A stretch of DNA of 64,000 nucleotides, from contig CM059432.1 of NCBI GenBank assembly GCA_030390025.1, forward strand, positions 62,870,001 through 62,934,000. Reading direction: 5' to 3'. The translations under genes and the position numbers were made by a program. Below are positions 1 through 37,378 of this stretch, piece by piece. The DNA comes from Squalus acanthias. Taxonomy: Eukaryota. Each line of letters opens with the position of its first letter. Position 1 is the stretch's first letter. The notes beneath the pieces were generated by a model that searched no databases, was not told the origin of the DNA, and saw only the letters and a list, made by a program, of their open reading frames with translations.

Positions 1-2
1 CC

Positions 3-446
3 AGAGCGTGGTTTGATCCCAGTAACCCCGCCACAACGGAGGAGTCTGTCCTGAATCGACTCACCATAGGGTATCGGAACACTAGGAGCACGGGAGCGTG
101 TCCCCTTAAGGGAAAGGTGCATGAGGCAAAGCCCGCAGCTCCGGCTCAGAAAAAGTGGCATCAGGAGGGAAATCGCGCCCCACAAACCAGTGGTGTTTGT
201 TACGGGTGCGGGAAGACAGGTCACTGGCATAAAAACTGCAGGAATCCCTGGAAGGACTCCAGGGACAAAGCTCCCGCAGTCCGAACCCAAGCGCCTGTCT
301 CTGAGAAAGGAGCTGGTGTGCCTATCCATCCCGATGCGATAGAATCAATGTTAGGAGCCATGCGGTCTCTTATGATTTCGCACGGGAAAGTGGCAGTCGT
401 TACCGGCCCCACAGATGCCACAACCCCGTCCACCGGTACCCAATGA
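3..446 (+). CDS. gag: Gag C-terminus (partial) with nucleocapsid zinc knuckle
   Basis: Frame open from base 3 to TGA 444-446; CYGCGKTGHWHKNC is a CX2CX4HX4C knuckle. Confidence 0.9.
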   Translation, partial: RAWFDPSNPATTEESVLNRLTIGYRNTRSTGACPLKGKVHEAKPAAPAQKKWHQEGNRAPQTSGVCYGCGKTGHWHKNCRNPWKDSRDKAPAVRTQAPVSEKGAGVPIHPDAIESMLGAMRSLMISHGKVAVVTGPTDATTPSTGTQ

Positions 447-3400
447 CTAAAGCCCGCGCAGCCCGTTTACCTGTGTCCGCTCAGCTATGATGCGTGGAAA
501 AGACCCCTGGTAGAGATGGAGGTAGAGAAGCAGAAGGGTAGTTACTTGTTGGACATGGGAGCTTCATGCACCGTGATTCATACAGATAGCCCCTTTGATT
601 CACCACTGTCTACCAAGGTCCCATTCACATTAGCGGGGTTCACGGGAAAAGAGCAGGCTGGCGCGTTCTCCATTCCGCTCTCCATTCATTTAGGAGCACT
701 CCACACTACATGGAAGTGCATACTGATGAAATGGCAAGAGGGGGGTGGCAGAGGTATCCTCGGATCGGATCTCCTAGCGGAACACGGGATCCTCGTGGAC
801 CTTAGGAATCACTGTCTCTGGGGAGCCAAGGGTGGGAAAGACAAGGTAGTTGTAATCCCAGGGAAGGAAGGAAAAGGGGCCCTGTGTACCATGAAGCCAT
901 CCGGAGGTTACGACCTCGGGCTTATGGTCGCGGATGTCCCAACGGACATGCAAACGTACGTGTCAGATAATATGCACGCGTTTGCAACCCACAAGCACGA
1001 TTGTGGGAGGGTTACCGGGTTTGAGGTCAGCGTAGACGGGGACCCCATGACCCGGCCCCAAAAGCAGTATAACTTCCCCAAAGAAGCAGAACCCGACATG
1101 GAGACAGCAATGTCCTCATTGGTGCAGCAGGGCGTGTTGAGACCGATAGCCACACACGTGAACTCCCCATTATGGCCGGTAAGGAAGCCGGATAATTCGT
1201 GGAGGGCCACGGTGGACTACAGAGTCCTTAACAGTAACATCCCCGCCTGCGCGCCCACAGTAGCAGCAGTTGCTGACCTAATAGGGAGTATCCCAGCGTC
1301 CGCGACCACGTTCACGGTGCTGGATATCTCGAACGGTTTTTGGTCCATCCCGCTGCGGCGAGAGGACCAGTACAAGTTTGCCTTTACTTTTAAAGGACAA
1401 CAGTACACGTGGAACTGTCTGCCACAGGGTTTCCACAACAGCCCCAGTATTTTCCATCAGTGTATGGCAGGAAGTTTAAAGGAGTTTAGTCAGCCCAATC
1501 AGATAGTGCAGTACGTGGATGATTTGCTCCTGTTCACAGACTCAAGGGAGGAGCATGGACCACTGTTAGCCGCGTTATTGGAGCTGCTAGCGAGAAAGGG
1601 TTTTAAAGTTAACCCTAAGAAAGCACGGATCGGTCAGCAGGAATTAAAATTCCTGGGCCTGACCATTCGCGCTGGGGAAAGAGCCATAGATAAGGCTAGG
1701 AGGGAGTCGGTGCAGGAGTTACCGATTCCCAACACCATAACGGGTGTGAGGTCCTTTCTGGGACTGACCGGTTACTGTAGAGACTTCATCGAGGACTATG
1801 CGGCCACAGCAGCTCCGCTGCTCCGACTCCTCCATAAGGGAGTGGAGTGGTCTTGGGACGAGGGTTGTCAGGCAGCATTCGAGAAGTTAAAAAGGGATCT
1901 GCAGACCGCGCCAGCTTTAGGGGCCATAGATGGGGGGGAGGAGTTTTTCCTGGAGGTAGCTGCCAGCGGAGACAGCTTGAGCGCTGTGCTGCTCCAAGAG
2001 CGTCACGGCAAGCTGAGGCCGGTTGTCTATTCGTCCAGGGTGTTAACGGATGTGGAGAGGAGTTTTTCCAACTGCGAAAGGCATCTTTTAGCCACGCATT
2101 GGGCTGTGAAAAGATCAGCGATCTTCACAGGGCTCTCTCCCATCACTCTCCTCACCCATCACACGCCAACCAAGATGCTTCTGGATGGGAGGATTAAGGA
2201 TGGGACCGTAAGCAGCGCTCGTATTGCGCGCTGGACCCTTCTCCTTTCCCAGATGGATCTTAGAGTTAAAGGTCTTTGTGAGCTCAGGCTCGCGGCCAAC
2301 CTGGTATACCCCGGAACAGCCCACCAGTGTTCGGTGGAAGGGGTGTGGGAGGTCAACATAGGTTTGCGGGCCGGGATACATCCCACCGGTCGCGAGATTT
2401 ATGTTGATGGTTCCAGCACAGTGTCCGCTGGCGAACGACTCACAGGGTGTGGAGTTTATGACCCTGCGGCAAACCTTGCCTTGGCAATTAAACTCCCCAG
2501 CACGATGAGCGCGCAGCAGGCTGAGCTGTCTGCGGTGGCGTATGTAGTTACCCACCCAGAGATCTTCCCAACCCCATACATGATTTGTTCGGACAGTATG
2601 TTTACGTGCAATTCGTGTACGGAATACCTGGCCATTTGGTCCCGCCTTTAACGGTGAAGCCCTTGCTGGAAAAGATCCTAGCAGCAGTGGGGGAGGAAGG
2701 GGAGATTTTCATCCACAAGGTGAAGGCTCACTCCTCCACAGAACCCCGCGGGGAGGGCAACCAGCAGGCGGATGCGCTAGCCAGGGAGGGTGCCCGTAAC
2801 GGCATTTTCTGGGACCCCTATGGACCCGGACCCGTGGCAGCGATCCAAGGCAGGGAAGGGAATCCCGGGAACACCAGGGTAGCACTGCCCCTAGACCTTA
2901 AGACCGTCCAGAACCAGGATCCCGCCCTAAAAGCAGTTGTCAGAACGATTACTGAGGGCAAGCAGGTAGAGGGCCCGTACAGTACGGCAACCCTCTCCGT
3001 TAAAGAAGGCATGCTGTTCCGCGAGGAACAGTGGGTTGTGCCGCAGCAGCACAGGAGGGAATTTCTCCAGTTGGCTCATGAGGGGCCGGGGGCAAGACAC
3101 CCCGGGCCCGAGGTTACCTGGCAACAGGTAGAGCAGGCGGGATGGTGGCTGGGACTCAGGGAGCAGGTCCGCGAGTTCTGTGCAAGCTGTCTTGTGTGCG
3201 CTGCAAACAACCCAGACCCCCAGAAAAGGAAAGTGCACATGGGGCACATCAGGAGGGTGGAGGGACCATGGCAGTCGATACAGATCGATTACATAGGGCC
3301 CCTGCCCACCACCCAGGGAGGCTACAAATACTGCCTCGTCTTGGTGGATGTGTTTTCCAAGTGGGTAGAAGCCTTCCCCTGTAGAACAGCTACGGCGCTG

Positions 3401-4735
3401 GGTACTGCCAAGATCTTGGTCCGGGAAGTGTTCTCGTGGTGGGGACTCCCCCGTTTCGTGGAGTCAGACCAAGGGAGTCATTTCACCGGCCAGGTGATGC
3501 AGAACACCCTCATGCTTTTGGGCATTGAAGGGAAGTGGCACGTAGCGCACAATTCCCAGTCATCAGGGATTGTTGAACGCATGAACCGGACCCTCAAGGA
3601 GAAACTGAGGAAAGAGACTATGAACTCGCCCCAAAAATGGGCGGAGGTTCTGCCTCTAGTCCTCATGGGAATCCGGGCCAGCCAGTTGAAGAGTACGGGG
3701 TATTCCCCGTACGAGGTGATGACTGGGAGGATCATGCGAACCCCCACCCATGTACTAGCCCCGGTGCTCACTGAGGGTCAGCTCCAAGAGGTGAAACGGG
3801 ACAAGTTTGTCCAGACCCTCTTGGAACGCCTGAAGCAGGTTTACGAGCAGGCGGCTGGGAACATGGGAAGACAGCACCGGGGCAATCGCCTGTTGCTGGA
3901 ACCCCGTAAGAAGCAGGAGTGGGAAGTCGGAGATCAGGTCATGGTTAGGAACTATGCCAGAGTAGGGAGTTTGGAGCCGCTGTACATGGGACCCTACAGT
4001 ATTGTAGATAAGGCGAGTCCCATGGTGTACGCCGTAAAGGTACCCCGGCGCACGAAATGGTGCCACATTAACCAGTGCAAGCTGTATAAACCAGGTGCAC
4101 AGGGGCCAATCACAGGGGCCAAACCTGCGAGTGGGGACTCTCAGCCCCGGGTAGAACCGCAGGGCACACAGGCCGGTAAAGCAGCCTGCATGAGGGGAGA
4201 GGACATTCTGGAAAAGTGTAGGTTCTTTTCTTTTTCTTGGGATTCAGATGAGGAAGAGCTCGGAGAGCTCAACCAAGGTAGTGACCCGGTCGGAGAGGTG
4301 GTGGGGTCGGAAGACGGAGGTTCCGCCCTCGACCCAAGCATAGGGGAGATAGGGATTGCGAGTGGAGTTCCACTTACTGGAGAGACAAGTAGGGTGGAGT
4401 TGGAAACCGCAGATCCCGAGCCCAGGGGGGCGGAGCCAGGGGAGACAGAGCCGGCGGCTGTGGTGGGACCACAGGCCGTGACGGTGGAAGTCCCGGTCCC
4501 CGGTCCGTCGGTCCTGGAGATCTTGCCCAAGGTAGCCCTCCGTAGGTCGAGTCGGACACCCCAGCCCAGGAAGTTGTGGTCAAATCCCTCGTACACCCCC
4601 AGGCGTAAGTTCAAGGCAGCCCAGGGAGATCCCAGTCCCAGCTCAGCAGCGACAGGCTGCGGCAGATCAAAGGAAGGGGTCAGTGCCCCCCCCCCGCCAC
4701 TGGGAAAAGCTCGTGGCAGCCTTCGCAGAATTTAG
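447..4735 (+). pseudogene. pol: Pro-Pol (protease, RT, tether, RNase H, integrase, long C-terminal tail), broken by a frameshifting deletion near 2645
   Basis: Protease LLDMGAS and GILGSDLL; RT LPQGFHNSP and QYVDDLL; tether FFLEVAAS..VVYSSR; RNase H IYVDGSS/AQQAEL/CSDS then, in the next frame, KVKAH..GNQQADALA; integrase HHCC, IQIDYIGP, ESDQGSHF, GIVERMNRTLK, GPY. Confidence 0.93.
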
Positions 4736-5008
4736 GTAGGCCGCCCTGGGAACGGGCGGCGCTGTACAGTTAAGTTTAGGATAAGTTTAAGTTTATAGTT
4801 TTTTTAATATCCAGTTAAGTTTGTAGTTTAATTTTAAAAGTAAATGGTAAAATGATGGGAGTTAGTGATAGGAATAGTTAAGGTCTATCCAGCATACATG
4901 TCGTTATACGTGAGACGAGGTCAAGGGACCCGCTCACCCTTCACAAAAAGCCAGAGACTCTTGGGAGGCTGGCTACATCATTTTATCTGATCACAGGAAC
5001 CAGGAGAT

Positions 5009-7361
5009 ATGGAAAGGATTCTGATAGTGCTCGCAACGATCGGATATGGATTGGCCTATCGGGGCCTCACCAAGGATGTCGTTGTGTTTGGTTGCTCCGG
5101 GGACACGGCCCCCATCACGACGGATGGGACCGGGGAGCGAGAGGCTGAGGAAACCGCCACTTATTTCCACAAGGGAAGGTGGCCGGGATGGCTGGGAATG
5201 AATTCAACGGAATACTCCAGCGCATCCGGATTTGCCTACAAAGAGACTTCTTTACTGTGTCCCAGGGTGAGGATCATTGCACCCAGAGTCAGCGTCACCG
5301 TCGGCAAAAGGATTTGTTTGACATGCAATGGGAAGGTCCCATTGAGCCGATGGTGGTGGTTACGGAAGTTAAGCAAGACTATGAGAAATTCCTCGGTCGA
5401 GTGGGAGCGATTGGGTAACAATACCCATCGGACAATTACGGGGACTAACGGACAATTGAAAGTCTGTTGGGACAAATGGTGGGAACCGGATGAGGGAATA
5501 TATGTTTGTATGTGGGGATCGAAGTACGTTTGCCCCAAGGGTATATCCATATTTTTCCTATGACAGTGGCAGGATGACTGGAAAGGGATGAGGTGGGATG
5601 TCAGCACCAGGGGGTGCGGAGCTCCATTCTCCCCGATCCCGGTAAACGCCACTGAACTCATCACGCGCCCACGCAAGTCTCCGCCCACGATTCCGGTGGT
5701 TTTGGCTCAGGAGGAAGGGTGCCCTAAAACCACTAAGGGGCCCGGGAATGGTCTGGTACTGGTGCCAACAGATCAGATACCTATATCAAGGGGTACATTA
5801 CGCGGTGGCCTCGGTGATTTTAAATCTCACCGAGGTGCATTTACCAGAGTGGTGTCCCAAAGAAACGGAACAATTGTACCAGGTGCTGTTAACTAACATG
5901 TTCAGGCAATTTTATGAGTTTGATTTTGCAGAGGTTGACAAAACAAGCTTATACACCACACCACACGAAGTTTTGGGTCAGGTGGGGAGACAAAGAAGGG
6001 GTGTTGTGAACGATGTGTTCACTGCTTTTAATACGGGAACATCTGTGGTCAACGCTCTAGACAATGTGGAGCTGCAGACCCAGATCAACGGTTTAAAAAC
6101 ACAGTTAAAAAGCATCCTCACAAACGAGAACAAGGTAGTAGGGTCTGAGTTACATGAGGACCAGGCCATGACACTACACTTAAAAGAGATTATAGCAGAG
6201 CTGGAGAAGCATGCGAGAACGGTAAATGCCATGATCAGGGAAGATCGAAATGCATCCGATCAAGCTGCGCAGAACGAGGTGTGCGTACTATACGGGGCGT
6301 GGTTACTGGGCGAGGGCCGCAGTAATTTGGAAGATTTAAAACAAGGTTTGGTCCCGTCCTGGATAAGTAACAAACACCTGCAGGCGCTCCACCCTTTTCA
6401 GAACGCATTAAGCCCGTGCCAGCTCAGGCTAGCCTCAGAGGCATACCCAGTCCCAGTGGACTGCGGACGGTCAATTCATACTATCATGGGGATAGTAGTA
6501 CGGATGCCGGTGTTGGGCGACACAGCAAAGCCCGCCCCGGTGTACCGGGTGGAGAACATTGGTGTCATTCAGGGGGGAGCCCACATTCGCTACGCTGCGG
6601 TCCCACCTTACGTCATCCGCTGGGAGCAAACGATGACAGGTACCGACCTTTCGGGTTGTCGTGGCCGGGGAGCACACATCATACTGTGTCCCCAGCACTT
6701 GAATGCCTTTTTAACACCACAATGCGGGTTCAGAACGGCTGGCGCGAAGCCCATGAATTGCACCATGGAAGCAATGACACAAGATCATGTGCCTCCACAG
6801 GTGGCATACATAGGGGGTGGAACGTATTGCATTACCACTGCAGCGCAACACTACCAGCATGGACAGCACAGCCGGTGTCCGGTGAGTGACAGCAGTTTCT
6901 GTTTTAAACCCAGGGCTGAAGTTCAAGTGGCACAACAGCGAATTGTCCCGATCCCTGAACCATCCACTGTTCACCTCACTGTAAAAGAGAATTTCACAGA
7001 CTTGCAGCGATTTGTCGCGCATTTCGGATACATCATTCCCCCTCTCCCTGAACACCTCACCAAGATTTTAAAAGCCGTCATGGTATCACAGAAACATTTT
7101 TACACCCTGGAACAAAAGACTGTAGAGATAGGGACAGAGATATTGGACATAGTAATCCCACCGTGGTGGGATCTGTTCACTAATATTGAAGTCCCGTCAT
7201 GGATCAGGATAGCCTCCCACATTTTGGTAGTGTGTCAAGTTGTAATTGTAGTGTACCTATTGGTCGTACACTGCAAAAGAGGCAAACGCCTCACCAGGCA
7301 GGAGAACACAGGGGAGTGGAGAGAACGTTACGTGTGCGTGAACGAGGAAAGTACCGCGTAA
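5009..7361 (+). pseudogene. env: Env: signal peptide, Ig-like domain and F-type class I fusion protein (about 783 aa if TGA 5561-5563 and a +1 base near 5780 are repaired)
   Basis: Hydrophobic N-terminus MERILIVLATIGYGLA; ORFs 5009-5563 and 5588-5896 share one frame; furin site RQRR at 5988-5999 then GVVNDVFTAFNTGTSVVNAL, heptad repeat, Cys-rich region, TM IASHILVVCQVVIVVYLLVVHC (about 7210-7274) and basic tail. Confidence 0.85.
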
Positions 7362-7499
7362 ACGGCCAGGATGACGCCGCTCCATTTTACCATGTGTGTT
7401 TTTGTAATTGTTGTTAGTTATGAGTATGTGTAACTAAGTTTGGAACTTTTGTATTTTTAAAAACAGTTGGTTTGATTATTTTTCCTTTTATAATAAAAC

Positions 7500-7793
7500 A
7501 TGCATATACAGGTGGTGCGAGAGGCATCGGCCTTTTGCACCTGGAAGGCGTATACGCAGTGTAAGTTTAAAGGCAATGCTGCCTACGATTTGTCCAAGCT
7601 AGACAACGTCATTTCTCTGGGAAATGAGGACTGCATGGAGGCCATAGGTAGTTTAATTACCGGGAGTGTTTGGATGTGGAGAATCGGGATAATTTTGCTC
7701 ACCAGCATTTTAATTGATACGATAAGCGGAGTTATTCGCATCAACAGGAGGGACTGTAAAATTTCGCAATTATCGCGATTCAAAATAACATAA
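7500..7793 (+). CDS. Candidate small accessory ORF between env and the LTR (97 aa, one hydrophobic segment)
   Basis: ATG 7500, possible acceptor AG 7510-7511 after a T-rich tract; hydrophobic WMWRIGIILLTSILIDTISGVI; runs through the PPT into U3. No recognised homology. Confidence 0.3.
   Translation: MHIQVVREASAFCTWKAYTQCKFKGNAAYDLSKLDNVISLGNEDCMEAIGSLITGSVWMWRIGIILLTSILIDTISGVIRINRRDCKISQLSRFKIT
7743..7754 (+). promoter_or_regulatory. Polypurine tract (plus-strand primer)
   Basis: AACAGGAGGGAC directly precedes the LTR start TGTAA. Confidence 0.7.
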
Positions 7794-9390
7794 GAGAAGC
7801 AGATTCGTTTGATCAGTTTTATTAAACGAAATGCTGTCCTGATAATAAAGGACACAGAAGCCTGTAAAATGGCCGCCGCGCATCGTGGCAGAAGCTTCCA
7901 GAAACACAGTGGGCAGACAAGATGGCGTCGAATATACATTCAGTATAAGATTGGATCATACTCGGTAAACACTGATAAAGACAGGATGCAACCTGTTTGC
8001 ATTTGGAACAATAGCAAAGATATAAGTGCTGGAATCGTTTTCCTATGCACAGTAAGGATCATTGTACTGGGCAATCGAAGGCCCATCCAGACACATCAAT
8101 ACACAAATACCCCCCCGGCTCTACAATGAGAGAGACATTGGCGGGTGATTAAGTCGGTATTCGGGGGGCCCCAAAACCAGTCGAGGAGACGATTCATACA
8201 CATCCTGGCTGGTCCAACAATGGGGAAAACATTAACGGATAGTTGGCCAGTTTCAGGTGCTACCAAAACCCGTTAAAGAAGATAATCGTCCCATGCTGGG
8301 AGTTTTGAGCGCCAAATATTACACAAAGGACAAACATTAAGATTTGAGCGGGAGATAAGCGGACACATCACTATAACTATAGAGAACAAATGTCCATCGC
8401 GCTCTTATTCTCTTATTCGCTTGCCTCTGGATGAACTCGCTTGACTTGCGGGCTCTTGATTTTCTCTCTGGACTTTGTTGACTCTTGACTCTTAGCCGTA
8501 CTGGTCGGTTATTCGAGTGTTGGGTGGAGCTCAATCGGTACGAGCCGCCCCGACAAGGGCAAGTAACAGGGTACACCATCCCAAGTGTCGGTAAACGGTG
8601 TCTGGACCCTGGAGGCCCGAGGAGACGAGACGAGAAGAAGACGAGAAGAAGACGAGAAGAAATTCCATGTGCCGCCACGGTCAGTAAACCCCGACCGCGC
8701 CCGAAAATATAAATACAGGACTCTTCTTTGAGTTCTACCGACTACAACCTGTGTCGAACACAGGAAGACTCTTCTTTGAATTTTATCCGAGTTCCGTCGA
8801 GTTCTTCATGACAACAGGGAGTCTGGCCAGCTTTTCGCAGCAGCGAAAGTAAACAAGTGGGGTGCAGAGACCCTTCCAAACACGTGACAGTCAGGCGCTG
8901 CAGCGAAACGAGCTGAGTGCCTCACTTTAAAATCTCCGAAGTAACACGAGTGGTGAGCATGTTTTCCGATCCTACAAATCTAGACGTAGTGTAGGTAGTG
9001 TTAAGGGAGGGTGGTTTTTAATAAGGTTAAGGTATAATGTGTTCCCCTTTCTACGATGTGCCGTATGTTCTCCATTTCCATAGACCAAGCTTTATGAATG
9101 TATGTATACTTGTACTCTCTTTGATTTGCGCCTATGACATGTATTTCATGATTTTAGACGCCATACAATAAAGATTTCCATTTCGTACTATTCAACCGGG
9201 TCTATTTGAGTTTTTCTCTGCATTACTGCTCCCTGCATCTAAGTCCAGTGTTAGAACCGTAAGGGCGAGTGGGTCGAACCACTCACAGGTGCTTATTGCA
9301 AAAAGGCTGGCCGGAGACCAGAGCAAGCAATAGTATAGGCAACGAAGGCCTAACCTCGCACCAGCACCGTCTGAGACACGCCCCCTTACA
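7755..9390 (+). repeat. 3' LTR of the ERV (1636 bp)
   Basis: TGTAA...TTACA terminal inverted ends; TATA-like sites at 8372 and 8708; AATAAA 9167-9172; CR1 resumes at 9391. The 5' LTR is not visible for confirmation. Confidence 0.8.
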
Positions 9391-11894
9391 AAGAGCAAAT
9401 ATGTAGGTAAATTTCTGAGAAGTGCAAAAACAATGGGGCAGTAATAGTAAGGGATTTCAACTACCCTAATATTAACTGGTCTAGAAGCAGTGTAAAAGGA
9501 ATAGAGGGTGCAGAATGCTTAAATGCATTCAGGAGAACTTTTTTAGCCAGTATGTAGCAAACCCAACAAGAGTGAGGGCAGTTCCGGACTTGGCTTTAGG
9601 GAATGAAGCTGGGCAGGTGGAAAAGGTATCAGTGGGCGAGCATTTGGTGGTAGTGATCATAATTCAGTTAGATTTAGCATAGTTATGGAAAAGGACAAAG
9701 ATAGACCAGGAGTAAAAGTTCTCAATTGAGGAAAAGCCAATTTTACTAAACTGAGATGTGATTTAGCAAAAGTGGACTGGAGACAGAAACTTGAAGGTAA
9801 ATCAGTATCAGAGCAGTGGGAGGCATTCAAGGAGGAGATAGTGAGGGTTCAGAGCAAATATGTTCCCACAAAGAAAAAGGGTGGGACTCCCAAATCTAGA
9901 AACCCCTGGATGTCAAGGTGCATACAGGGTAGGATAAGGCAAAAAAGGGAAGCTTATGTCAGATACTGAGAGCTAAATACTGCAGAAAGCCTAGAGGAGT
10001 ATAGAAAGTACAGGAGTGAAATTACAAAGGAAATTAGGAATGTAAAGAGAGGGCATGAAACAATATTGGCAAGTACAATCAAGGAAAACCCAAATATGTT
10101 TTATAAATACATAAAGAGCAAGAGGATAACTAAGGAAAGAGTAGGGGCTATTAGAGACCAAAAAGGTAACCCTGTGTGTGGAGGTGGAAGACGTGGGTGT
10201 GGTTCTTAATGAATACTTTGCGTCTGTCTTCACAAAAGAGATGGACGATATAGACATTGTAGTTAAGGAGAAGGAGTGTGAAATATTGGATGAAATAAAC
10301 ATAGTAAGAGAAAAAGTATTAAGGGGTTTAGCATCTTTGAAAGTAGCTAAATCGCCAGGCCCGGATGAAATGTATCCCAGGCTGTTAAGAGAAGCAAGGG
10401 AGGAAATAGCGGAGGCTCTGACCATCATTTTCCAATCCTCTCTGGCTACAGGTGTGGTGTCAGAGGACTGGAGGACTGCTAATGTTGTTCTGTTATTTAA
10501 AAAGGGAGAAAGGGATAGACCGAGTAATTAAAGGCCTGTCCGCCTAACCTCGGTGGTGGGCAAATTATTGGAAAACATTCTGAGGGACAGGATAAATCTT
10601 CATTTAGAAAGATACGGATTAATCAAGAACAGTCAGCATGGATTTGTTCAGGGAAGGTTGTGTCTCACTAACTTGATTGAATTTTTTGAGGAGTTAACAA
10701 GGAGGGTTTGATGTAGTCTACATGGATTTTAGCAAGGCTTTTGAGACAGTCCCACATGGCAGACTGGTCAGAAAAGTAAAAGCCCATGGGATCCAAGGGA
10801 AAGTGGCAAGTTGGGTCCAAATTTGACTCAGTGGCAGGAAGCAAAGGAAATGGTCGACGGCTGTTTTTGTGACTGGAAGGCCTGTTTCCAGTGGGGTTCC
10901 ACAGCGCTCAGTACTAGGTCCCTTGCTTTTCGTGGTATATATCAATGACTTCAATGTAGGGGGCATGATTAAGAAGTTTGCAGATGATACAAAAATTGGC
11001 CGTGTGGTTGGTAGTGAGGAAGAAAGCTATAGATTGCATGAAGCTATCAATGGACTGGTTAGGTGGGCAGAAAAGTGGCAAATGGAATTCATCCGGAGAA
11101 GTGTGAGGTAATGCACATGGGGAGGGCTACCAAAGCAAGGGAATACACAATAAATGGTAGGATACTGAGAAGTGTAGAGGAACAGAGGGACCTTGGAGTG
11201 CATGTCCACAGATCCCTGAAGGTAGCAGGACAGGTAGATAAGGTGGTTAAGAAGGCATACGGGATACTTTCCTTTATTAGCCGAGGTATAGAATACAAGA
11301 GCAGGGAGGTTATGCTTGAACTGTATAAAACACTAGTTAGGCCACAGCTAGAGTACTGCGTGCAGTTCTGGTCACCACATTACAGGAAAGATGTGATTGC
11401 ACTAGAGAGGGTACAGAGGAGATTTACGAGGATGTTGCCAGGACTGGAGAATTTTAGCTATGAGGAAAGTTTGGATAGGCTGTGGTTATTTTCTTTGAAG
11501 CAGAGGAGGCTGAGGCGAGATTTAATTGAGGTGCAAAAAATTATGAGGGGCCTAGATAGCGTGGATAGGAAGGACCTATTTCCCTTAGCAGAAGGGTCAA
11601 TAACCAGGGGGCATAGATTTAAAGTAATTGGTAGAAGGATTAGAGGGGAGTTGAGGAGAACTTTTTTCACCCAGGTGGGAGTCTGGAACTCACTGCCTGA
11701 AAGGATGGTAGAGGCAGAAACCCTCATCACATTTAAGAAGTACTTGGAGTGCCATAACCTACAGGGCTATGGACCAAGAGCTGGAAAGTGGGATTAGGCT
11801 GGATAGCTCTTTTTGGCTGGCACAGACATGATGGGCCGAATGGCCTCCTTCTGTGCTGTAAATTTCTATGATTCTATGGTTTTATGATTTCGAT
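9391..11894 (+). mobile_element. CR1 LINE (degraded ORF2), the target of the ERV insertion
   Basis: APE remnant (DFNYPNINW), KSPGPD, GVPQRSVLGP, KFADD, RPQLEYCVQFWSP; TTCTATGA-type 3' tail; many stops and frameshifts. Confidence 0.92.
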
Positions 11895-13190: not shown

Positions 13191-13705
13191 TATAGGGGGA
13201 AAAATTCAGTTGGTTGCGCCTCCCGTTAGCGCCTTAAGAGGGCGCTAATGGGGCGCAAAGCAGCTAGCGCCTGGGCGCAGCGATGTTTGCGCCGCTCGCG
13301 AACTTAACTAGACATTTTGCGGCGGCGCTAAAATTTACCGCCGCGATCTCCTGCTCACGCAGATCTTGACGTCATACGAGGGTGCAACGCCCTTGTGGTG
13401 CCCCGGAGCGGAAATTGAGTGGCGCCCCCATCCTTTCCGCCTGGCGCATCCAACGACCGGAAGACTGGAACGCTATCAGTCGCTGTGGGGCTGGGGGGGG
13501 CGCTATTTAAAGGGAGCCTCTTCCTGTCTTTCTCTGTGGTTGACATTTTTGCACCACTTGTTCTGAGAGAGAGAGAGAGATTCGGAGAGAGAGAAAGAGA
13601 GACTTCTGCATTGAGTCAACGCTGTGTGAGGTAGTTTTGGCTACTGATCATAACTTGGCAGGTACTTTGGTTTTTGGCCTTCATAACTTTGCTTGCTAAA
13701 AGACT

Positions 13706-14736
13706 ATGGGGGCTGCCCTGATTGGGGGCGTCGTCCTGCGCCAGCTGAATCGGAGGACACAGAGACGCAGAGAGAGAGTGGCAATGATGGCCAGACGGAG
13801 GAGGGCCAACAGGCGTCTGTACAGGAGAGCTTACCCTCCCAGGGTATATCGTGAACCGCTCTCCTACATTCATATGTCTGAGGAGCAGTGTTTGCGAAGG
13901 CTGCACTTCAGCAAGGAGGTGGTCACTGAGCTCTGCCACCTGCTGCAGCCAGATCTGCAGCCTCAACTGAGGTCCAGGACGTCTCTGTCGGTGGCAGTGA
14001 AGATTACAGTGGCTCTGAACTTTTATGCTACTGGCTCATTTCAATCTGCTGCTGCGGACATCGGCAATATCTCCCAGTTCGCGGTGCATTGCTGCATCCG
14101 TCACGTCACAAATGCCCTCTTTAAAAGGAGACGAGAGTACATCTCTTTCCCCATGACCCCAGACAAGCAGCATGAACGCGCTCTGGGCTTTGCGAGGATA
14201 GCGGGCTTCCCCTTGGTGCAGGGCGCCATTGACTGCACGCATGTGGCTTTGCGTGCTCCGCATGAGAATGCCGAGGATTTCTGGAACAGAAAGGGGTTCC
14301 ATTCCTTGAATGTTCAGTTGGTCTGTGACCACAGACAGCTGATACTCGCTGTCAATGCCCACTATCCAGGCAGCTGCCACGATGCTTTCATCCTGCGCCA
14401 GACTACTGTGGCAGAACTTTTCGAGGCACCGCATCAGCCAGTTGGTTGGCTTCTCGGGGACAAGGGGCATCCATTGAGCACCTGGCTGATGACACCGCTC
14501 CGTACGCCCAACACCCCTGCTGAGCTGCGGTACAACGAGAGCCATCAAGCTACCAGGAACATTGTTGAGCACACAATCGGCGTGCTGAAGCAACGGTTCC
14601 ACTGTCTGGACCATTCTGGAGGAGCCCTGCAGTACTCGCCTGAGCGAGTTTCCCACTTCGTAGTTGTGTGCTGCATGCTGCATAACATGGCAATCCTCAG
14701 GACCCAGCCAATGCCACCAGGCCTTGGAGCACCACC

Positions 14737-14767
<31 letters not shown>

Positions 14768-14866
14768 GAGGAGGATGATGATCAGCAGCACCAAGGCGTG
14801 AGGGCGGCCCACAATGTTGAAACTGCAAGGGCCGTCCGTCAACGGCTGATAGCAAGCCGCTTCTAG
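13706..14866 (+). CDS. Harbinger DDE transposase (HARBI1-like, 386 aa, open frame)
   Basis: GAIDCTHV, NRKGFHSLNVQLVCD, YPGSCHDAFIL, LLGDKG, RNIVEHTIGVLKQRF, CCMLHN; acidic tail. Confidence 0.95.
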
Positions 14867-15453
14867 GCCCCTGCTGAGGAAATGGCTTCTGCCATTGAGA
14901 ACAACATGAATGAAACCAACCCGCAACCCCTAAGCCGGCCAAGGCAGCAATGATTCCAAAGACCAAACATGTATATTTTGAATACAAAAACTTATTTATT
15001 TCACAAACTCTGTGTGTGTCATTTCCTCATGACAAACTAATAGAAAGAAACACAAAAACACAGTCATTAACAGAACTGGTTCTCATAACCTGGAGATAAT
15101 GTCCAAAAGTTTGACCACGAACCTTAGCCTTTAATAAAAAAATGACCAACATTTTGTCACACCTCCTACTTTTTGCCCTTCGAGGGTGATCTCCTTCCCT
15201 TGCGCACTTCCCCCCTTCTTACCCTACTGCTCCTCCGTAATAGGACCTCAGTGGCTGCAGCAAGGCTGGTGGAAGGCTGCTGATTGTCAGAACCTGAGAC
15301 TGCAGATGCCCTTGAAGGACAGCCTTGACCAGCTCTGGGCCTGGAGGGCCCGGCTGCAGACTGCACCAACTCTGCATGGGCAGCAGCAGTCTGTCCTACA
15401 GGCGGTGGCAAGTGCAGTGGAGAAGTGACAGTGGTGGCAGCAGGAATGCTGTC

Positions 15454-15540
15454 ATCACCTGAGGAAGGAGCGATAGTTCCGAAAGCTTGTGATTTCAAAT
15501 AAAACTGTTGGACTATAACCTGGTGTTGTGCGACCTCTCA
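15454..15540 (+). mobile_element. 87-bp Penelope-like element terminal fragment with hammerhead motif
   Basis: Near-identical to 23275-23357 and 58784-58869 (AAATAAA.CTGTTGGACTATAACCTGGTGTTGTGCGAC); ATC repeated at 15454 and 15541. Confidence 0.85.
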
Positions 15541-16564
15541 ATCTTGAGAGAGGACAGCAACTCCCTGCTCGACCGACACACTGGCACTCCCACGGGGCAG
15601 CACTTCAGCACCCGGAGCAATCTGCTGGAGCACAGATTGCTGGCCTGCTGCGGCGCGGTGAGAGCCCCGGGGAAATGTGTACGAACCATCGAGGATGGCA
15701 GCAGTCAGTGCTCGCGTGGCCGCAATCTGAGTCTGCATGAGAGCAGTCTGAGACTGAATTGCAGCACTAAGCTTTAGTGTGGCATCCGCCTGTGCTACAG
15801 CGAAGTGCTCCACACTCCTTGCCAGTGATTCAATGCATTCGGGCACCCTTCCCACTGCACCCATGAGCTCAGTGTGCATGTCCACCGCCTGGGTGTTCAT
15901 TTCAGCGATGAGCCGCTCCTCCTCTGTGTCCAGTGCAGTAGGAGTCGCTGGCATACTCTCCCTCCGGGGAGAAGGCCCCCGTTCTTCCCTACCCCCATGG
16001 CGTTGCTGCAGCCCGCTGGGTCCTGGAGCTTCACCCTCATCAGACCCTTCCCCCCTGCTCCCCTCCAGGGAAGGCGTGTTCCAAGTGTGGGCATGGGCTT
16101 CCTCGGGAGAGGGTGGCACTGATGCTCCGCCTTCATCTTCCTCCTCGCCTGCAGCTTCACTCCCACTGGCAGCTTGAAGGCCCGTCTCCTCAGCTGGTGA
16201 ATCACCATCTGAAAGCAGGGAGGTACAAGAGTGGCTTTAGTGTGAGGACAGGGTGGCAGTAAGGGAGGAATGAGTGCAGCGATTTAGTAAGTTGGATTGA
16301 AAGTGTCAAAGGCTGGTGTTGTGAGGGACAAGTGGAAGGACAGAGGACAAAAAGGTGCTGACCTTACCATTGCTGTCCAGAACGGGGTCGGCGTCTCCAG
16401 TGGCGACGGGACCGATCACCCGGCTTGCCACAATCCTGTGGACGCGCTCCTCAAGATCGCTGAGGGGTTGCAGCTGAGGCCGCCCTCCACCCGTCCGTTG
16501 CTGCTGTCTCCTATTATGAGATAGCTTGGCCTGCAAGAAAAAGGACGGCGTCTGAGTAAATATA

Positions 16565-22271: not shown

Positions 22272-22361
22272 CATGATGCGGAGATGCCGGTGTTGGACTG
22301 GGGTGGACAAAAATGAGAAGTCGCACAACACCAGGTTATAGTCCAACAGTTTTATTTAAAA

Positions 22362-22399
22362 TTACGAGCTTTCGGAGCTGCTGCCCCTTCGTCAGGTAA
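22362..22399 (-). ncRNA. Minimal type I hammerhead ribozyme motif (Penelope pLTR)
   Basis: Minus strand UUAC-CUGACGA-A-GGGGC-agca-GCUCC-GAAA-GCUC-GUAA. Confidence 0.75.
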
Positions 22400-23274
22400 A
22401 GGTACAGTGAGGGAATCTATTACACAGTATATATACACAGAGAGCAATTTGTCTGCAGAGATACAATCTGTTAGGGAGGCATTACATCAAAGACACATCA
22501 GAGTACAGCTAAGACAATGCCTTCAAGCAGCCGCCTAACCTCAAAAGTACCATCGTTCGCAGCAAATTACCCAGCTGTCAGGAGAACAGCGACCACGACA
22601 CCACACAACCCTGCCACGGCAACCTCTGCAAGACATGCCAGATCATCATCACACGTGAGGACACTACCCACCAGGTACATGGTACATACTCATGTGACTC
22701 GGCCAACATTGTCTACCTCATACGTTGCAGGAAAGGATGCCCCGGAGCATGGTACATCGGCGAGACCATGCAGACACTGAGACAACGTATGAACGGACAC
22801 CGCGCAACAATCGCCAGGCAGGATTGTTGCCTCCCAGTCGGAGAACACTTCAGCAGTCAAGGACATTCAGCCTCGGATCTGCGGGTTAGCGTTCTCCAAG
22901 GCGGCCTTCGAGACACACGACAACGCAAAATCATCGAGCAAAAACTGATAGCCAAGTTCCGCACCCATGAGGACGGCCTCAATAGGGATCTCGGGTTCAT
23001 GTCACGCTACAGAATGTGACTCGACATCGTTGTCTGTCTTTCCAGTTTTTAAAAAAAAACACAAAAAAAACCAAACAAAAAAACCCCCCAAAAAAGTTAA
23101 AAGCTCAACTGCAGACGGCAGCATTTGACACGTTGGACCCCCTGTGACCCACCTCATTGTCTTAGCTGTACTCTGATGTGTCTTTGATGTAATGCCTCCC
23201 TAACAGATTGTATCTCTGCAGACAAATTGCTCTCTGTGTATATATACTGTGTAATAGATTCCCTCACTGTACCT

Positions 23275-23312
23275 TTACCTGATGAAGGGGCAGCAGCTCT
23301 GAAAGCTCGTAA
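23275..23312 (+). ncRNA. Minimal type I hammerhead ribozyme motif (Penelope pLTR)
   Basis: UUAC-CUGAUGA-A-GGGGC-agca-GCUCU-GAAA-GCUC-GUAA. Confidence 0.7.
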
Positions 23313-26169
23313 TTTTAAATAAAACTGTTGGACTATAACCTGGTGTTGTGCGACTTCCCAGAAATGGAGATAGAGAAGTAAGTATTTCCAGCATTTTCTA
23401 TTTTTAAATCATAAAAGAGTATTTACTGTCAATGACAGGGGAAATGTCATAGTCACATGGTTCCAACAAACCAATTTGTTCACAAGAGCGACACCACACA
23501 ACAATCAGCTCACTACAAACTTTTGAATAATATAGATGGTATTGAGAGTATACAATCTTTGTCAGTGTGGATCTGCTGTGAGTTTACTGCTATTCTGAAT
23601 TAAAATGTGCTGTGAATGTTTATTTATTTAATTTTCAATGCCATGTTGAAGCCAACTCTTTAGAAAATTGATTCAATTCAATTTATAAATAGAAAGGCCA
23701 ATGCAGATTCTCTTTCTGCCATCTGTACAAGTGCAACACATGCTTTAGCTTGTAATTTAAGGCATATGTCTTAGTTTGGGAATTAGGTGCCATGGAATCC
23801 TAGTTCTGTTCTAATTACAGACTTATGGTAGTTTAGTGTTTTGAAAATATTTTAAAAGTCCATATAACAAGGACTTATATTTTTCAAGTCTTGGATATTT
23901 TTAAAAGGGCAAATATTTTGTTTGGAAAGGCAGACCCATAGTTAACTTTTAATTGTGATTACACCACATGCAAATATTTGCCAAAAGTGGCCAAAACCAC
24001 AATTTACTTCATCATGCAGTGTGTTCATGAATAAAAAGACTTACTAAACATTTCCTGAAGTTGGTGCACCTTTAACTGTTGTTTGACTAGCCACAGATTT
24101 TTCTCCTGCTCACTTATTTTTGCTACTTTCTAAATATGACTGCTGTAAACAATGTGACCTTTCCATATCCAGCCTACGTTTGCAAGACTGATGTCATGCA
24201 TGTTTGAATACAGAGTGAATGCATGTCTGAAGTGAACCTTGTAATTAGAAACCAGTCTTTCTATCATCCTGATACAAAGCTCACTGACACAGCATAAATT
24301 GGGATTGGGTCTGACACCAGTGTCAGCTTTGGATGGATCTCCTATGTTTCCAAGAAGCAGAGAATCGCAGTGTGGTTCCTGGATATCATTGTACCCTGAT
24401 TTTGGATCTATGGAATTGAAATGAACTTTGTGGTAATGTAAATGTTGTATACCTAAGAGAACATGCTTTAAGTCACTCTGAATCGGAGTCATAGTGGGAG
24501 TTTGGGTATAAATGGAAGCATCAGTAATTAACTTACATTTGATGTATGTCCGGAGCAAAATAGATCATGGCTGAAAAATTGTACCGTAAGCAATAGGAAG
24601 TATTTAGTAAAAAAAAGAGGCATCATTGTTTTTCAGTGAATGAGTAACAGAACATAGACCATGACTGACTCCACCAATTTATTTTATTTTTCCCTTCTCT
24701 GACTAAATCCTTTGGCACTATGACGATTTTGGTAGGTTTTTAGAAAAAATCCTATAGGATTCCTATCCGATTTCTTAAGACACACTTCTTACATGATGTT
24801 AAGCAGTGAAGTGAACTTTAAAGCAGTTGCCATATATAAATACACCTTTGGTTTCTGATAAACAATCTTAAAACCTCGCATAATACGCTATTTAGTGTGG
24901 CTTAGGTTTTTTAAAAAAACTTTAAGATTAAAAATCGGTACAGTGGTCACTTAAATAGCCGCTATCTCTAGCCTCCACTCAAAGACAGTCACATACAGTG
25001 ACAGAAATACTTTTGTATCTGCTTTTGTACACACATCCCAAAGGAAAATGGGGTCAGGCAACAGGGAGCTGAGTAAAGTGCAGCTGCAGTTCTCTGCCCT
25101 GGCTCAGCTCCATGAGCAGGGCAGGGACAGCCAGAGTTCCATTAAAAAAATGATAATGTTTTGATTGTTCAGTATAGTTTATGCTCGTTTTAGCAATTGT
25201 GCCACTAACCTTGACAGGATGGATCTTTAAAATCAAATCCCGTTTTTAATTAAACTGTTTCTTGTACCACACCATGTCCATTCATTGCTAAGATCAAATC
25301 CTACTCATCACCACATTGTTTGACAAACAGCTGAATCCAAGGTCATTTCAAGTCCAACTCCCTTCCTCATTCCCATATCACAATAGGTTGGGCGTTAAGC
25401 TGATTTGTAAATATGGGCAGTAATGTGACTTTTTATAACTGGTGGCTGAGGGGAACGCAGACAACCTGTTCACAAGTCGTAGTCCTTGCCCCCTGCAACC
25501 AGTCTCCAAGAGATTACCCATGCATAACTCGCTCCCCTATTGGGAGATCCTGCAGTTTCCGCTCAGCATCTATCTACACCGCACAGTTCAGATTGAGAAC
25601 TGAGCAGACACAAGCTTGTATTCATCTCTGCTCTGGGGAACTGAGTGTTAGCACCAATGTGACTTTTTTCTTAACAACAGCCTGGACTCGGTGTAGGAAA
25701 TAGCGCATTCATCAACAATCCTTTTTTCTTCCTGTTGAAATTGCCTACTTATACCACTTCAGAAATCCCCAAGCTAGCAAAAAGCTAGAGGGTGACACAT
25801 TGTACTACAGTTGTTGCTGAAGACAGTACTGCTGTTGAAAAGAAATTGATTCATGCTGCAGTTGATGCTCTGACAATTGAGTAAGCAAATGGTATTCAAC
25901 AAGGATCATGATCATTGTCAAGATATCTTGACGGCCGAAAAGTAAACTGTAGCAGTAACTGAGACAGTTTTCAGCGTGCTGTGGTGTCTTTACTAGTACT
26001 ATTCAGTGATCAGTATGATTATGATATTACTTTTGAGACTCAGGCAGTTTTCTGAGTTTTATTAGTTTTATGCCTTAACTCATATTCATTTTTCTGATAT
26101 TTTAGATAAAACGTTCTTTATATTAAATATATTTTTGTGTTTTCAGCATAACTGTGATAGTATATTATC

Positions 26170-30638: not shown

Positions 30639-33600
30639 ATGCATGTGTGTTCAGACATGTTTCAGTGTATAAACATGTGTGTTGGCATGTGAGTGTTTAC
30701 CTGAGTATGTGTCTGCATGTGAATAGATATATATGACAGCTTTGTACTTGTGAAGCTCCTGTGAAGTGGCTTGGGACATTTTACTACGTTAAAGGCGCTA
30801 TAAAAATGCAAGTTGCTGTTACATGTGTAAAAGTACATAGTATATGCTGGTGTGTGTAGATGTGTATAGTATGTGTATTTTGTGTTTGCATGATTCTGTT
30901 CAGATTGTACTGTATGTGTATCTACATATCTTTATTGTAATGCGTGTGTAGATGTGTATACATCTTTTGACTGTATGTGTCTATGTGTGCAGCTACATGT
31001 ACAGAAGTGTCTGCTTGGGTGCACACACGCGCGGATGCACAACTATACCAACAATTAAATTTATTTTTCTTTAATAGCAAACTTGTATGAGAGGGGTCAT
31101 GTGATACAGGTAACGGAGAACTGATGGACAGAACCTTGGGAGCAGCAGGGATTTGGGTATAAGTCTGGTTGTCATATGTCAGATGGAACCACCACCGAGA
31201 AGGTCTTACGGCCGACGCTAATCACAACTGGTTAGTTTGCGTAGTCCATAGTGGCAAAGTGAGGATTAGATTTAAGGACAAACTGGGCTCCTGCATGGCA
31301 CTAATGGAGGTTTGAGTGTTAAACGAGTGCACCTCAGACCACATACCTGATAGGAAATATTTTAGATGATGAAGAGTATATTTTACAAGCAGCAGGGAAA
31401 GTTTAGTGCTCAAAGGATGAATTAAAGTCTACTATATCACTTTAAAATGACATTTATTTGCTAGTTGCAGTGAAGGATAGTGCTGCCCATCACGGTTTAA
31501 TGTTTTCAAGGAATCAATTATTGTAATACCTAACTGTGTTCATGTTGTGTTCTATTGCTGAGCTTAATCTTACACAGATTTAAATAGACTGGCAGCAAGT
31601 TAACAGTGTTATCAGAGCAGTAACATAAAGCTCTCAATTTTTTTCAAATAACCTGAATTATAATTTTACTACCCGAAACAGGTTGGGAATTGCCAAGCAA
31701 ACTACTGAGTGGGTAATAATCATAATAAATCCAGTTCTGCAAGCTGACAAAAGCAATACAGTCAGTTCAATCAAAAAATGGGACAGGGACACATTTAAAT
31801 ACAAAAGTTTTTAATTATGCATCAGAAAAGTATGCCGAATGTGAGAAACCTTTCAGATGTTGCACAGACACTAAAGCTCTATGCCTGTGTCTGGTTAAGT
31901 GGTGAGTTTAGGAAGGTGGAGAGCATTGACGCAAACTTCCTGTGGGATCCTTCTGTATTGCAGCCAGTGCTCTGCTGAGTTTTAAAAAAAAGAACCTGAG
32001 GGAGAAGTCAAAGCAGGAATGATTTGGGCTGGCTGAGCAGAGCACGTCTCCACAGGGCCATGCTTTGCACAGTTGGACTGGATCACACTGACACGGTGAA
32101 AGCGTGGTGGCTCCAGCCTGGCGGGCCGCTCAGCAGGTTGATGAATGTCCAAGGCTCAGGATCTTGCCACTCAGGCCAGTAAAATCAAGCCACAATGAGT
32201 TACAGTTTCCCAGTGCTCCCTCCTCCTCCCTCCCCCACACACAAACATTCATTGCTGTTAGATCCTTGCAGCTCATTTTACGTCATTACTCACTCCGTCT
32301 CATAGTACATTTGTATGATTCTGCCCTATGGCATCAGTTTAATCATCCCTATTGCATCAAATCAAATCATAAATCTTTCAATTGCGTACGTTTTGTTTTA
32401 CAATAAAAGGCTTCTTTAAAAAAAAGCATTTAAAATACAGACAAAATTAAATTCCTGCTTAACTGTGAAGCCTGTCCTCAATCTATTTACTTGACTCCAT
32501 TATATATCAACGTCTCCCTGTCAAACTAGACAGTGAGGTCTGGCAAAGAAGTTTCACTCTATAATAATTCTAGAGCAGGGCTGGGTACTTTGCTGATATG
32601 CCAACATATTTGCCACACTCTGCTAACACTTTGATACATACTCAGACAGACGGAAAAGTGTCAATTGAGTTTACATTACGTAGGTGTCTGTCAATGCTTC
32701 CCAAAGATGGCGCTGTATTGATGTTGCCAGTAAATTCTTTTGCTTAAGACTATGGGGGTCAAATTGGATAAGACCCGAAAATGGGCGTGAGGATTGCGGC
32801 GCGCGATTAACTCACGCCCATTCATTGTGATGTAGGCAGCACAGTAAATTTTTGTTGCCTGCTGTTTTAAATAATTGCTGCATGCTGCCAGCACTACCTG
32901 TGCTGTTCATTGGCTCCATGCATCAGCAGGGGGCCTGATATCGCGAGTAGCTAGCGCTACTTAAAGGCAGCCTGCACCTCTTAAAGGAGAGGTGCATCGT
33001 GGCTGCAAGAAGTGGGGGCATTGTTTCAAAACTGAATCTTGTGCTGTGATACTTTGAGGAATGGCTGAATGTGCGAGAGAGCGTGCACCAAGGTTTTCTG
33101 ACAATGCACTGGAAGTCGTGATGCAAGACATGGAGAGAAGGAGAGATGTCCTGTATCTGCAGGGGGGCAGGAGGACCTCCAGAGATATTCTCAGTAGACA
33201 GTGGGAACAAGTAGTGGTAGAAGTCAGTGCCAAGAGTGTTACTCCAAGAACATGGATGCAGTTTTACAATCTGACACAAGTTGCCAAGGTGAGTGAGTTC
33301 ATCTTCAAATGGCATATCCTACCAACTCGCCTCATCCACTGTTCAATTCATTACACCCCCATCACCCACCTAGCAACAATCTCTATGAATCAGTACTCAA
33401 CCCTTCAATTCACATGGTTCACCTCACCCTCCCACACTTAGCACTTTTGCAAGCCTCGCACCCACAACTCACAGCTCGCACACATTGACAGCTATTCAAC
33501 CATGACAGCCCCATCACCCAAACATATTGCAGGACACTCACTGACACACTTCCCTGTTTCTTGCAGGAGAAGGGAGCACATAACAGGAGGCAGCAGGCAA

Positions 33601-36862: not shown

Positions 36863-37378
36863 ACTGGCCTGTAGTTGCTGGGTTTATCCTTACATCTTTT
36901 TTTGAACAAGGGTGTAACATTTGCAATTCTCCAGTCCTCTGGCATTACCCCGGTACCTAAGGAGAATTGGAAGATTATGATGAGTACTGCTGCGATTTCC
37001 TCCTTAACCTCCCTCAGCATCCTAGGATGCATCCCATCTGGTCCTGGTGACTTATCAACTCTTTATCAAATTTTATCTGATCCAGTAACTCCACTACCTC
37101 CTCTTTCACTATGACTTTGGCAGCATCTTCTTCCTTGGTAAAGACAGATGCAAAGTACTCATTTAGTACCTCAGCCATGCCCTCTGCCTCCATGCTTAGG
37201 TCTCCTTTTTGGTCCCTAATTGGCCCCACCCCTCCTCTTACTACCTGTTTATTATTTATATGCCTATAGAAGACTTTTGAATTCCCTTTTATGTTAGCTG
37301 CCAATCTATTCTCATACTCTCTCTCTTTGCCCCTCTTATTTTCTTTTTCACTTCCCCTCTGAACTTTCTATATTCAGC

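Follow-up and report, generated by a model that had tools for sequence, protein, structure and literature searches.

We identified positions 1-9390 of a 64,000-nucleotide stretch of the Squalus acanthias genome (contig CM059432.1, positions 62,870,001 to 62,934,000 of the forward strand; hereafter the window) as the 3' three quarters of a 12,387-bp provirus with the layout LTR-gag-pol-env-LTR (LTR, long terminal repeat), the rest of which lies upstream of the window. The original prediction had read this region as a lokiretrovirus-like endogenous retrovirus (ERV) that might extend the host range of that group. Instead, comparison of its sequence indicates that the element is not a lokiretrovirus but likely belongs to the true retroviruses (Retroviridae), within the snakehead-retrovirus-like grade (clade Huo) and with snakehead retrovirus (SnRV) as a distant relative. 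We consider it highly probable that the element is a defective provirus of this grade, whose envelope protein (Env) is predicted to be of the F type and carries a likely N-terminal immunoglobulin (Ig)-like domain that would bind the target cell.

Placement of the element among retroviruses

Lokiretroviruses are defined by their reverse transcriptase (RT) clade, according to the available text of Wang and Han (PMC7947760). In the RT alignment shown there, the lokiretrovirus rows read QY[KR]xPLxxY (degraded in Loki-Aro) and PFGY.N (PFGL in one row). Compared by eye with this alignment, the window RT lacks these motifs and has QYNFP and LPQGFHNSP, as in SnRV and other retroviruses. Its best matches are frog, coelacanth and turtle proteins (45-53% identity); it is 52% identical to frog and coelacanth ERVs, 48% to the protein P0018, 43% to SnRV and 35-39% to the lokiretrovirus anchors. 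We calculated two RT trees, one of 54 rows hand-picked from 240 matches after short and redundant ones had been removed (LG+G4), the other of 33 rows under a mixture model. The anchors were assigned by eye against the published alignment: P0130 is SnRV, P0068 and P0052 are close to Loki-Aro, and P0131 is a typical lokiretrovirus (Loki). Gypsy elements separate first in both trees, then a Loki clade (100/98-99), then Retroviridae including the window (100/99 with 54 rows, 100/97 with 33), these support pairs covering only two to three Loki anchors and a set with no foamy virus RT. Forcing the window RT together with Loki was 42 log units worse (approximately unbiased (AU) test, p 0.0158). Thus the proposed RT phylogeny places the element inside Retroviridae, apart from both gypsy and Loki, and motifs, identities, trees and AU test all speak against a lokiretrovirus-like element. 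The window RT also lies outside the class I clade (99/95, 33-row tree), nearest to frog, coelacanth, turtle and ca_mi_ERV1-like sequences; P0018, a ca_mi_ERV1 look-alike by eye, falls in its group (88/82, 33-row tree).

Published placements of relatives agree with this position. The ca_mi_ERV1 element of elephant shark stands in the clade Huo block (available part of PMC6001957), and it shares DNA with Han's SnRV-like lineage I (CmiERV lineage I). The little-skate RT fragment le_er_ERV4 (Xu et al., 2018, S2 Data, PMC6001957) is identical to the window at 121 of 138 RT residues, counted by eye, and very likely belongs to the same family as judged by this sequence likeness; the source, as far as available, gives only a 414-nt RT fragment, with no LTR, gag, env or clade label seen. 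SnRV-like ERVs were already known from cartilaginous fish (available text of PMC4422223), and an RT outside the Loki clade does not extend the host range of lokiretroviruses. The premise of that proposal, that chondrichthyans were not among the original lokiretrovirus hosts, was correct: none of six chondrichthyan genomes was positive in the published survey, in the part available (PMC7947760). Some SnRV-related ERVs carry a zinc knuckle and a GPY motif like the window, according to the available text of PMC4299795. Differences from SnRV are found in the integrase, which is 35% identical, and SnRV Env was not identified among the matches; moreover, the window family has a 4-bp target-site duplication (TSD), against 5 bp listed for ERV3/ERV4.

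Further traits of Retroviridae other than lokiretroviruses are the LTR-gag-pol-env-LTR order, a tRNA primer site, a polypurine tract and a TSD, all present here. Members of Spumaretrovirinae have a Gag without zinc knuckle and make Pol separately from Gag. In contrast, the window has a CCHC knuckle, and its pol lies in frame behind a conserved gag stop. The RT and RNase H motifs that had been reported are where they were described: YVDD at 1512, and EVAAS (1953) and THH (2154) of a Ty3/gypsy-like RNase H without catalytic acids, the tether, which scores against RT_RNaseH (E 2e-18) and RT_RNaseH_2 (E 2.6e-21). A second RNase H is likewise present, with VDGS (2403), QAEL (2517), SDS (2589) and NQQAD (2759), and matches Pfam RNase_H (E 2.8e-8). 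To our knowledge all retroviruses have a dual RNase H, which is therefore not diagnostic of lokiretroviruses.

Judged from the genome sequence itself, the predicted cartilaginous-fish host is likely, and more narrowly an elasmobranch. Six exons of a Niban-like gene match a sawshark protein at 64-87% identity, and every one of the nearest viral relatives comes from a chondrichthyan (the six close Env matches all come from a sawshark and a skate).

The envelope protein and its N-terminal head

The Env had been read from 5781 onwards, with an early furin site. In fact, 5781 is where this copy has a frameshift; of 20 other copies examined, 6 have env as a single frame of 783 codons from the ATG seen here at 5009, so that 257 upstream codons (signal peptide, Ig-like domain and linker) had been missed and RQRR occupies residues 327-330. 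The furin motif itself, the lack of CX6CC and a single transmembrane (TM) segment were described correctly. The frame 5781-7358 encodes 526 amino acids with 14 Cys; behind the fusion peptide follow a long heptad helix, a Cys-rich beta head, a second heptad, the TM segment and a short tail. A gamma-type Env was rejected, as the window Env has no CX6CC and does not match TLV_coat or GP41.

Single-sequence Env searches against Pfam and PDB gave no match, and none of the members of a 42-row family alignment matches Fusion_gly; a chimeric relative, P0274, has a weak Baculo_F match (E 0.0011). The 42-sequence profile searched against PDB had the TM of foamy virus Env as its three best matches (E 0.0012-0.023). 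A first fold prediction from 8 close sequences failed (predicted local distance difference test, pLDDT, 27.7), and a second from the 42 sequences reached 62 overall, with 80-95 over most of residues 240-300 and 420-650 of the F head. With this model Foldseek returned 228 matches at E<=0.001, headed by the F protein of human parainfluenza virus 3 (E 4.5e-11) and including F of Langya, respiratory syncytial, Nipah and Newcastle disease viruses. In a VIA structure comparison with Nipah F, 289 residues aligned at 4.9 A (Z 12.4), and in a viral structure library the model matched insect-virus glycoproteins, baculovirus F and feline foamy virus Env. The F-protein-like Env of the original prediction is thus borne out, by the model matches to paramyxovirus F and by the profile match to foamy TM. 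Furin site, fusion peptide and the predicted fold of residues 244-715 are as in paramyxo- and pneumovirus F, whereas identity is 10-16%; in these viruses F lacks an N-terminal Ig head, and attachment falls to a separate protein.

The same model also matched the predicted Envs of two walleye epsilonretroviruses, walleye epidermal hyperplasia virus 1 (WEHV1) and walleye dermal sarcoma virus (WDSV), with E 5.7e-10 and 4.4e-8, respectively. Walleye Env has been described as non-gamma (available text of PMC9967133), and its match to an F-type model may be unreported. Further matches were the glycoprotein of a fish filovirus and proteins from herpesviruses of abalone and frog.

As a model-based prediction the F fold of Env seems real, but it is not the badge of a lokiretrovirus, because foamy virus Env has it too (PMC11468914, as far as available; PDB 8OZH, 8RM0 and 8RM1), sharing the F-like core with the window Env and being matched in its TM head region by the family profile (E 0.0012). 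The two differ at the N-terminal side, where the window Env has a cleavable-looking signal peptide, followed by the Ig-like head and an F2-like segment that is short. In foamy Env a leader peptide, anchored in the membrane by itself, stands at the N-terminus, and the surface subunit contains a large receptor-binding domain.

A profile search of 1.84 billion proteins found 50 more distant Env matches. We looked up 19, of which 17 were named: 10 from sharks, 5 from frogs and 2 from coelacanth. Linkage of this env with the related pol in shark, frog and coelacanth hosts is suggested by the shared hosts only.

The N-terminal head is where the Env departs from the F proteins compared above. Residues 83-172 hold Cys, Trp and DEGIYVC in Ig order (the Cys-Trp-DxGxYxC pattern), and Pfam Ig_3 matches the window head at E 0.0043, under its curated cut-off. 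An Ig-clan family is among the weak Pfam matches of five of seven N-terminal segments (from the window, shark, frog and unnamed relatives). Additionally, ESM Atlas neighbours of the head include Ig-clan clusters at 0.90-0.93, a bamboo-shark relative is annotated 'Ig-like domain-containing protein', and the model places strands in the segment at pLDDT 40-62. The head thus probably has an Ig fold; that it also binds a receptor is a step further, which we mildly favour. A comparable case is the nectin3 capture of CrocERV31 (available text of PMC4299795), in which an Ig-superfamily sequence stands in the env position; there a whole recent host mRNA replaces env, whereas here one very divergent domain lies in the frame of the fusion protein. 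A literature search by title and abstract found no description of an Ig-headed F-type Env in SnRV-like ERVs; Repbase and Dfam lay outside this search. Two further proteins, P0253 and P0267, form a sister shark Env lineage with the same F part and a different Cys-rich N-terminal head, a sequence pattern that suggests swapping of heads within this Env group.

Selection was assessed on 15 indel-free env copies of 20 fetched, a change being called shared when found in at least two copies. Shared changes were 45 silent and 29 amino-acid changes (ratio of amino-acid to silent polymorphism, pN/pS, 0.19), and singletons 78 silent and 141 amino-acid changes (pN/pS 0.54; shared against singleton, Fisher p 0.0002). 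The N-terminal third alone had 12 silent and 9 amino-acid shared changes (p 0.0008 against neutrality). Shared changes are not independent of copy ancestry, which makes these p values generous. While the family was multiplying, Env, head included, was likely required, a sign of reinfection; indeed, because the shared env changes are mostly silent, the family seems to have spread mostly by infecting the germ line anew.

Several observations weigh against parts of this reading. No foamy, alpha, beta, delta or lentiviral RT is included in the RT trees, in which the base of Retroviridae forms a polytomy. The window does not come out as sister to SnRV, and bootstrap values of only 82-88 join it to frog, coelacanth and elephant-shark-like sequences. 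The name 'clade Huo' hence rests on the grade and on the published placements of relatives, and the le_er_ERV4 label was not found in the tree file of Xu et al. (2018). The integrase scores 194 bits against a lokiretrovirus and 123 against SnRV, and the tether 102 against 57. In the integrase tree, which leaves the position of the window unsettled and was made without host NYNRIN, Loki falls together with members of this lineage from frog and coelacanth (90/88); relatives are named 'NYNRIN-like'. As to the head, all Ig matches are under Pfam cut-offs, the N-terminal model is unreliable (pLDDT 24-62), and a 4-sequence N-terminal profile found no Ig structure in PDB. Moreover, the N-terminal segments align poorly with one another, the shark relative P0253 has its different head, and the Ig segment holds only six shared changes (3 silent, 3 amino-acid). 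Finally, the host assignment was made without a bony-fish control.

One alternative is that the head is no attachment module, either having no Ig fold or acting as an Ig-like decoy, which would damp down the immunity of the host or shield the fusion protein. The low Ig scores and the lack of a confident model would fit this, and the ESM Atlas neighbours of the head include soluble poxvirus decoys of the interferon and interleukin-18 receptors. Against it stand the canonical Cys-Trp-DxGxYxC pattern, the recurrence of Ig-clan matches in divergent relatives, the purifying selection on the N-terminal third and the lack of another candidate attachment gene between pol and the LTR. We regard this alternative as possible and as the less probable of the two. 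It is unlikely that the element is a recombinant that joined a snakehead-like RT to an env, perhaps also an integrase, taken from a lokiretrovirus. Such swaps between env and pol have been reported as frequent in ERVs of anamniotes (available text of bioRxiv 2021.11.23.469661), and the integrase tree does mix Loki with members of this lineage. The named sources of related Envs, however, are sharks, frogs and coelacanth, the same hosts as those of the RT relatives, none of the 19 matches looked up being named from teleosts, the main Loki hosts; furthermore, the best solved-structure match of the Env profile is foamy TM. Given the shared hosts and the foamy TM match, old shared descent fits better than a recent swap, which would leave an ancient one as the form of this alternative.

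A lokiretrovirus, the first from cartilaginous fish, is very improbable. Its appeal lies in an F-type Env whose motif order is, by eye, that of the published Loki-Xtr Env, in the integrase and tether scores given above and in a survey that had found no chondrichthyan host; lokiretroviruses also share with the window an Env with signal peptide, RXXR site (RXKR-type in Loki, RQRR here), fusion peptide, coiled coil and TM segment, the dual RNase H and possibly a NYNRIN/CGIN1-like integrase (available text of PMC7947760). The RT evidence contradicts it in a group that is defined by RT, and the published Loki-Xtr Env has its F2-like part directly after the signal peptide, without the 230-residue head of the window Env. 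Moreover, no smc gene was seen. Lastly, a Ty3/gypsy element (Metaviridae) with a captured F-like env, like the insect errantiviruses, can be dismissed: the top ESM Atlas feature matches of Env do include Gypsy/Baculo_F envelope clusters and the tether keeps a Ty3-like look, but gypsy RTs form a separate clade (100/100 in both trees), PDB ranks RT of the murine leukaemia virus type (E 3e-61) and foamy RT (E 8e-56) above Ty3 (E 9e-41), and the active second RNase H has a retroviral layout.

The provirus, its family and the neighbouring elements

The 5' part of the provirus was located by a DNA search of the source genome, which found a 99% identical LTR upstream. The upstream stretch (labelled L001) holds the 5' LTR, a primer-binding site 5 bases behind it and the remaining gag in frame. 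The gag frame begins at an ATG at L001 4707, about 1.3 kb before the window, is open throughout and totals about 579 codons; no capsid match to Pfam was found in the upstream gag. The features are collected in the table below.

Table. Features of the provirus, in window coordinates unless L001 is given; E values are those of Pfam matches.
Feature	Position	Strand	Remarks
5' LTR	L001 3004-4638		1635 bp; ~3.0-1.4 kb upstream of the window
gag 3' end	1-446	+	one CCHC zinc knuckle 195-242 (zf-CCHC E 0.0084); stop TGA 444-446
pol part 1	447-2651	+	in frame with gag; protease LLDMGAS 546, RT 1068-1859, tether, half of active RNase H
tether (degenerate RNase H)	~1850-2270	+	within pol part 1
pol part 2	2645-4735	+	RNase H end, integrase, tail
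integrase	HHCC 3038-3214; DDE core 3266-3600; GPY/SH3-like end 3920-4081	+	Integrase_H2C2 E 7e-15; rve E 2.6e-14
env N-terminal third	5009-5779	+	signal peptide ~5009-5070; probable Ig-like domain ~5255-5524; linker
env F-type fusion part (predicted fold)	5781-7361	+	F2-like segment (from ~5720); RQRR 5988-5999; fusion peptide from 6000; TM ~7209-7270
polypurine tract, short	7746-7754	+	beside 3' LTR; same stretch precedes 5 other 3' LTRs
3' LTR	7755-9390	+	1636 bp; TGTAA...TTACA ends; TATAAA near 8708; AATAAA near 9167
target-site duplication AAGA	9391-9394	+	4 bp; copy at both provirus ends

The 3' LTR ends at 9390 as predicted, and the flank AAGAG, proposed as a place to look for a TSD, begins with a true one. 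Behind the integrase follows an in-frame, acidic, proline-rich tail of about 220 residues (4082-4735) without Pfam match; the Pol tail of SnRV is shorter and of similar make-up. The provirus was inserted in a CR1-type long interspersed element (LINE) that resumes downstream, as judged by eye from reading across the site, and directly before the provirus this LINE has an insert resembling a short interspersed element (L001 ~2590-2990, by eye).

The LTR pair differs by 13 transitions, 7 transversions and 1 gap column (Kimura two-parameter distance 0.0123, about 1.2%). This corresponds to 2.8 million years at the mammalian rate of 2.2e-9 and, by our own arithmetic, to about 28 million years if the rate is ten times lower, as Han (2015) assumed for elephant shark. 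The fairly young insertion that had been proposed is supported by this distance, 'young' being only relative given the spread of these estimates. The lesions are few, as had been noted, but disabling, and the copy in the window is dead, with pol, env and primer site all damaged. A frameshifting deletion near 2645 in RNase H is private to it, 11 of 11 other copies examined having more sequence at this point. Its env is interrupted by a stop at 5561-5563 and by the frameshift near 5780, and the primer-binding site is shortened. The TGA at 444-446 was rejected as a mutation: a stop stands behind gag in all 86 copies that match the junction pattern, 85 having TGA followed by CTA and one TAA. TGA-CTA is a known context of stop-codon readthrough.

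The family is abundant, with at least hundreds of loci in the genome. The 40 best env matches are 97-98% identical, and exact patterns, whose counts are lower bounds, occur at least 99 times for the gag-pol junction (control pattern: 1), at least 405 times for LTR ends and at least 712 times for the junction of LTR and primer site (sister subfamilies included). Five other LTR pairs are 0.0075-0.019 apart; a 4-bp TSD flanks 4 of these five pairs and all 8 solo LTRs examined. Primer sites occur in two variants among the copies, each matching a tRNA-Arg(TCG) gene of the same genome. Genes for tRNA-Arg(TCG) and tRNA-Ser(GCT) lie in tandem arrays that repeat about every 1.62 kb (contig C26, ~39.0-41.9 Mb; 435 exact matches in the genome), and more of the copies read match this tRNA-Arg(TCG) isodecoder as primer than the other one. 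Two env copies lie 10.8 kb apart between three LTR ends (contig C4, 80.54-80.56 Mb), a tandem provirus sharing an LTR. The env region is present in DNA runs of several organisms, and contigs of three of these align at mostly 90-100% identity; no RNA dataset was among those listed as containing env, and runs guessed to be RNA have contigs over env, which does not by itself establish transcription. A search of IMG/VR found no relative. The public gene models P0005, P0274 and P0249 join pieces of the env family to Niban-like, fbxo15 and zinc-finger frames; these fusions are probably annotation chimeras and possibly exonised env.

Elsewhere in the window, an open transposase frame of the Harbinger/HARBI1 type spans 388 codons (13700-14866, + strand; DDE_Tnp_4 E 2e-39), with a facing frame (15538-16236, - strand) as a possible partner gene; another acidic frame, at 33489-34019, seems to be related. 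An element at 22314-23360, resembling a miniature inverted-repeat transposable element, appears young, with 206-bp inverted arms that are 99% complementary and 635 bp apart; related pieces lie at 15436-15546 and 58360-58880. Copies of CR1-type LINEs, some with long open RT frames, are found at 9391-11880, 34034-35384, 37298-40326, 47691-50579 and 59741-62236.

Proposed working and meaning

We propose that an intact member of this family would work as follows. The 5' LTR would drive the genomic RNA, and Gag would end at the UGA, which might be read through at a low rate to yield Gag-Pol, in keeping with the conserved stop and the shared frame. Reverse transcription would be primed by the host tRNA-Arg(TCG) matched by the primer site, and the integrase would make the 4-bp duplications seen at the insertion sites. 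Env, presumably translated from a spliced RNA, would enter the secretory path and trimerise. Furin might then cut it at RQRR into an Ig-linker-F2 subunit and an F1-like subunit with the fusion peptide at its N-terminus, and the F1-like part, if it folds as predicted, could refold in the manner of F proteins to form a helical bundle. In paramyxoviruses F depends on a second protein for attachment, and foamy Env brings a receptor-binding domain of its own; here the Ig-like head would be the best candidate for this role. Reinfection of the germ line would be the main mode by which the family spread.

Part of this picture is already known, namely the RT family, catalogued as a fragment, and SnRV-like ERVs of sharks. 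The lokiretrovirus host-range claim falls, and an F-like Env is no proof of a lokiretrovirus. The probable Ig head on a class I fusion protein offers a small, testable candidate for receptor binding, and the youth and abundance of the family make it possible to date its spread and to measure selection on it. Tentatively, one and the same lineage of true retroviruses, undescribed and branching off very early, might occur in sharks, skates, coelacanth and frogs, having kept an ancestral kit and joined a captured Ig domain to its fusion protein to serve for attachment in a single chain. If so, the ancestral kit would comprise an F-type Env, a NYNRIN-type integrase and a little-degraded tether, as in lokiretroviruses. 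Wang and Han left four scenarios for the origin of the retroviral Env (available text of PMC7947760). That an F-type Env, with sequence likeness to foamy TM, is predicted within Retroviridae in a lineage separate from the foamy viruses favours those scenarios in which the common ancestor already had one. Together with the Envs of foamy and walleye viruses, such a lineage would mean that retroviruses started out with an F protein as their envelope, later replaced by Envs of the gamma and beta types.

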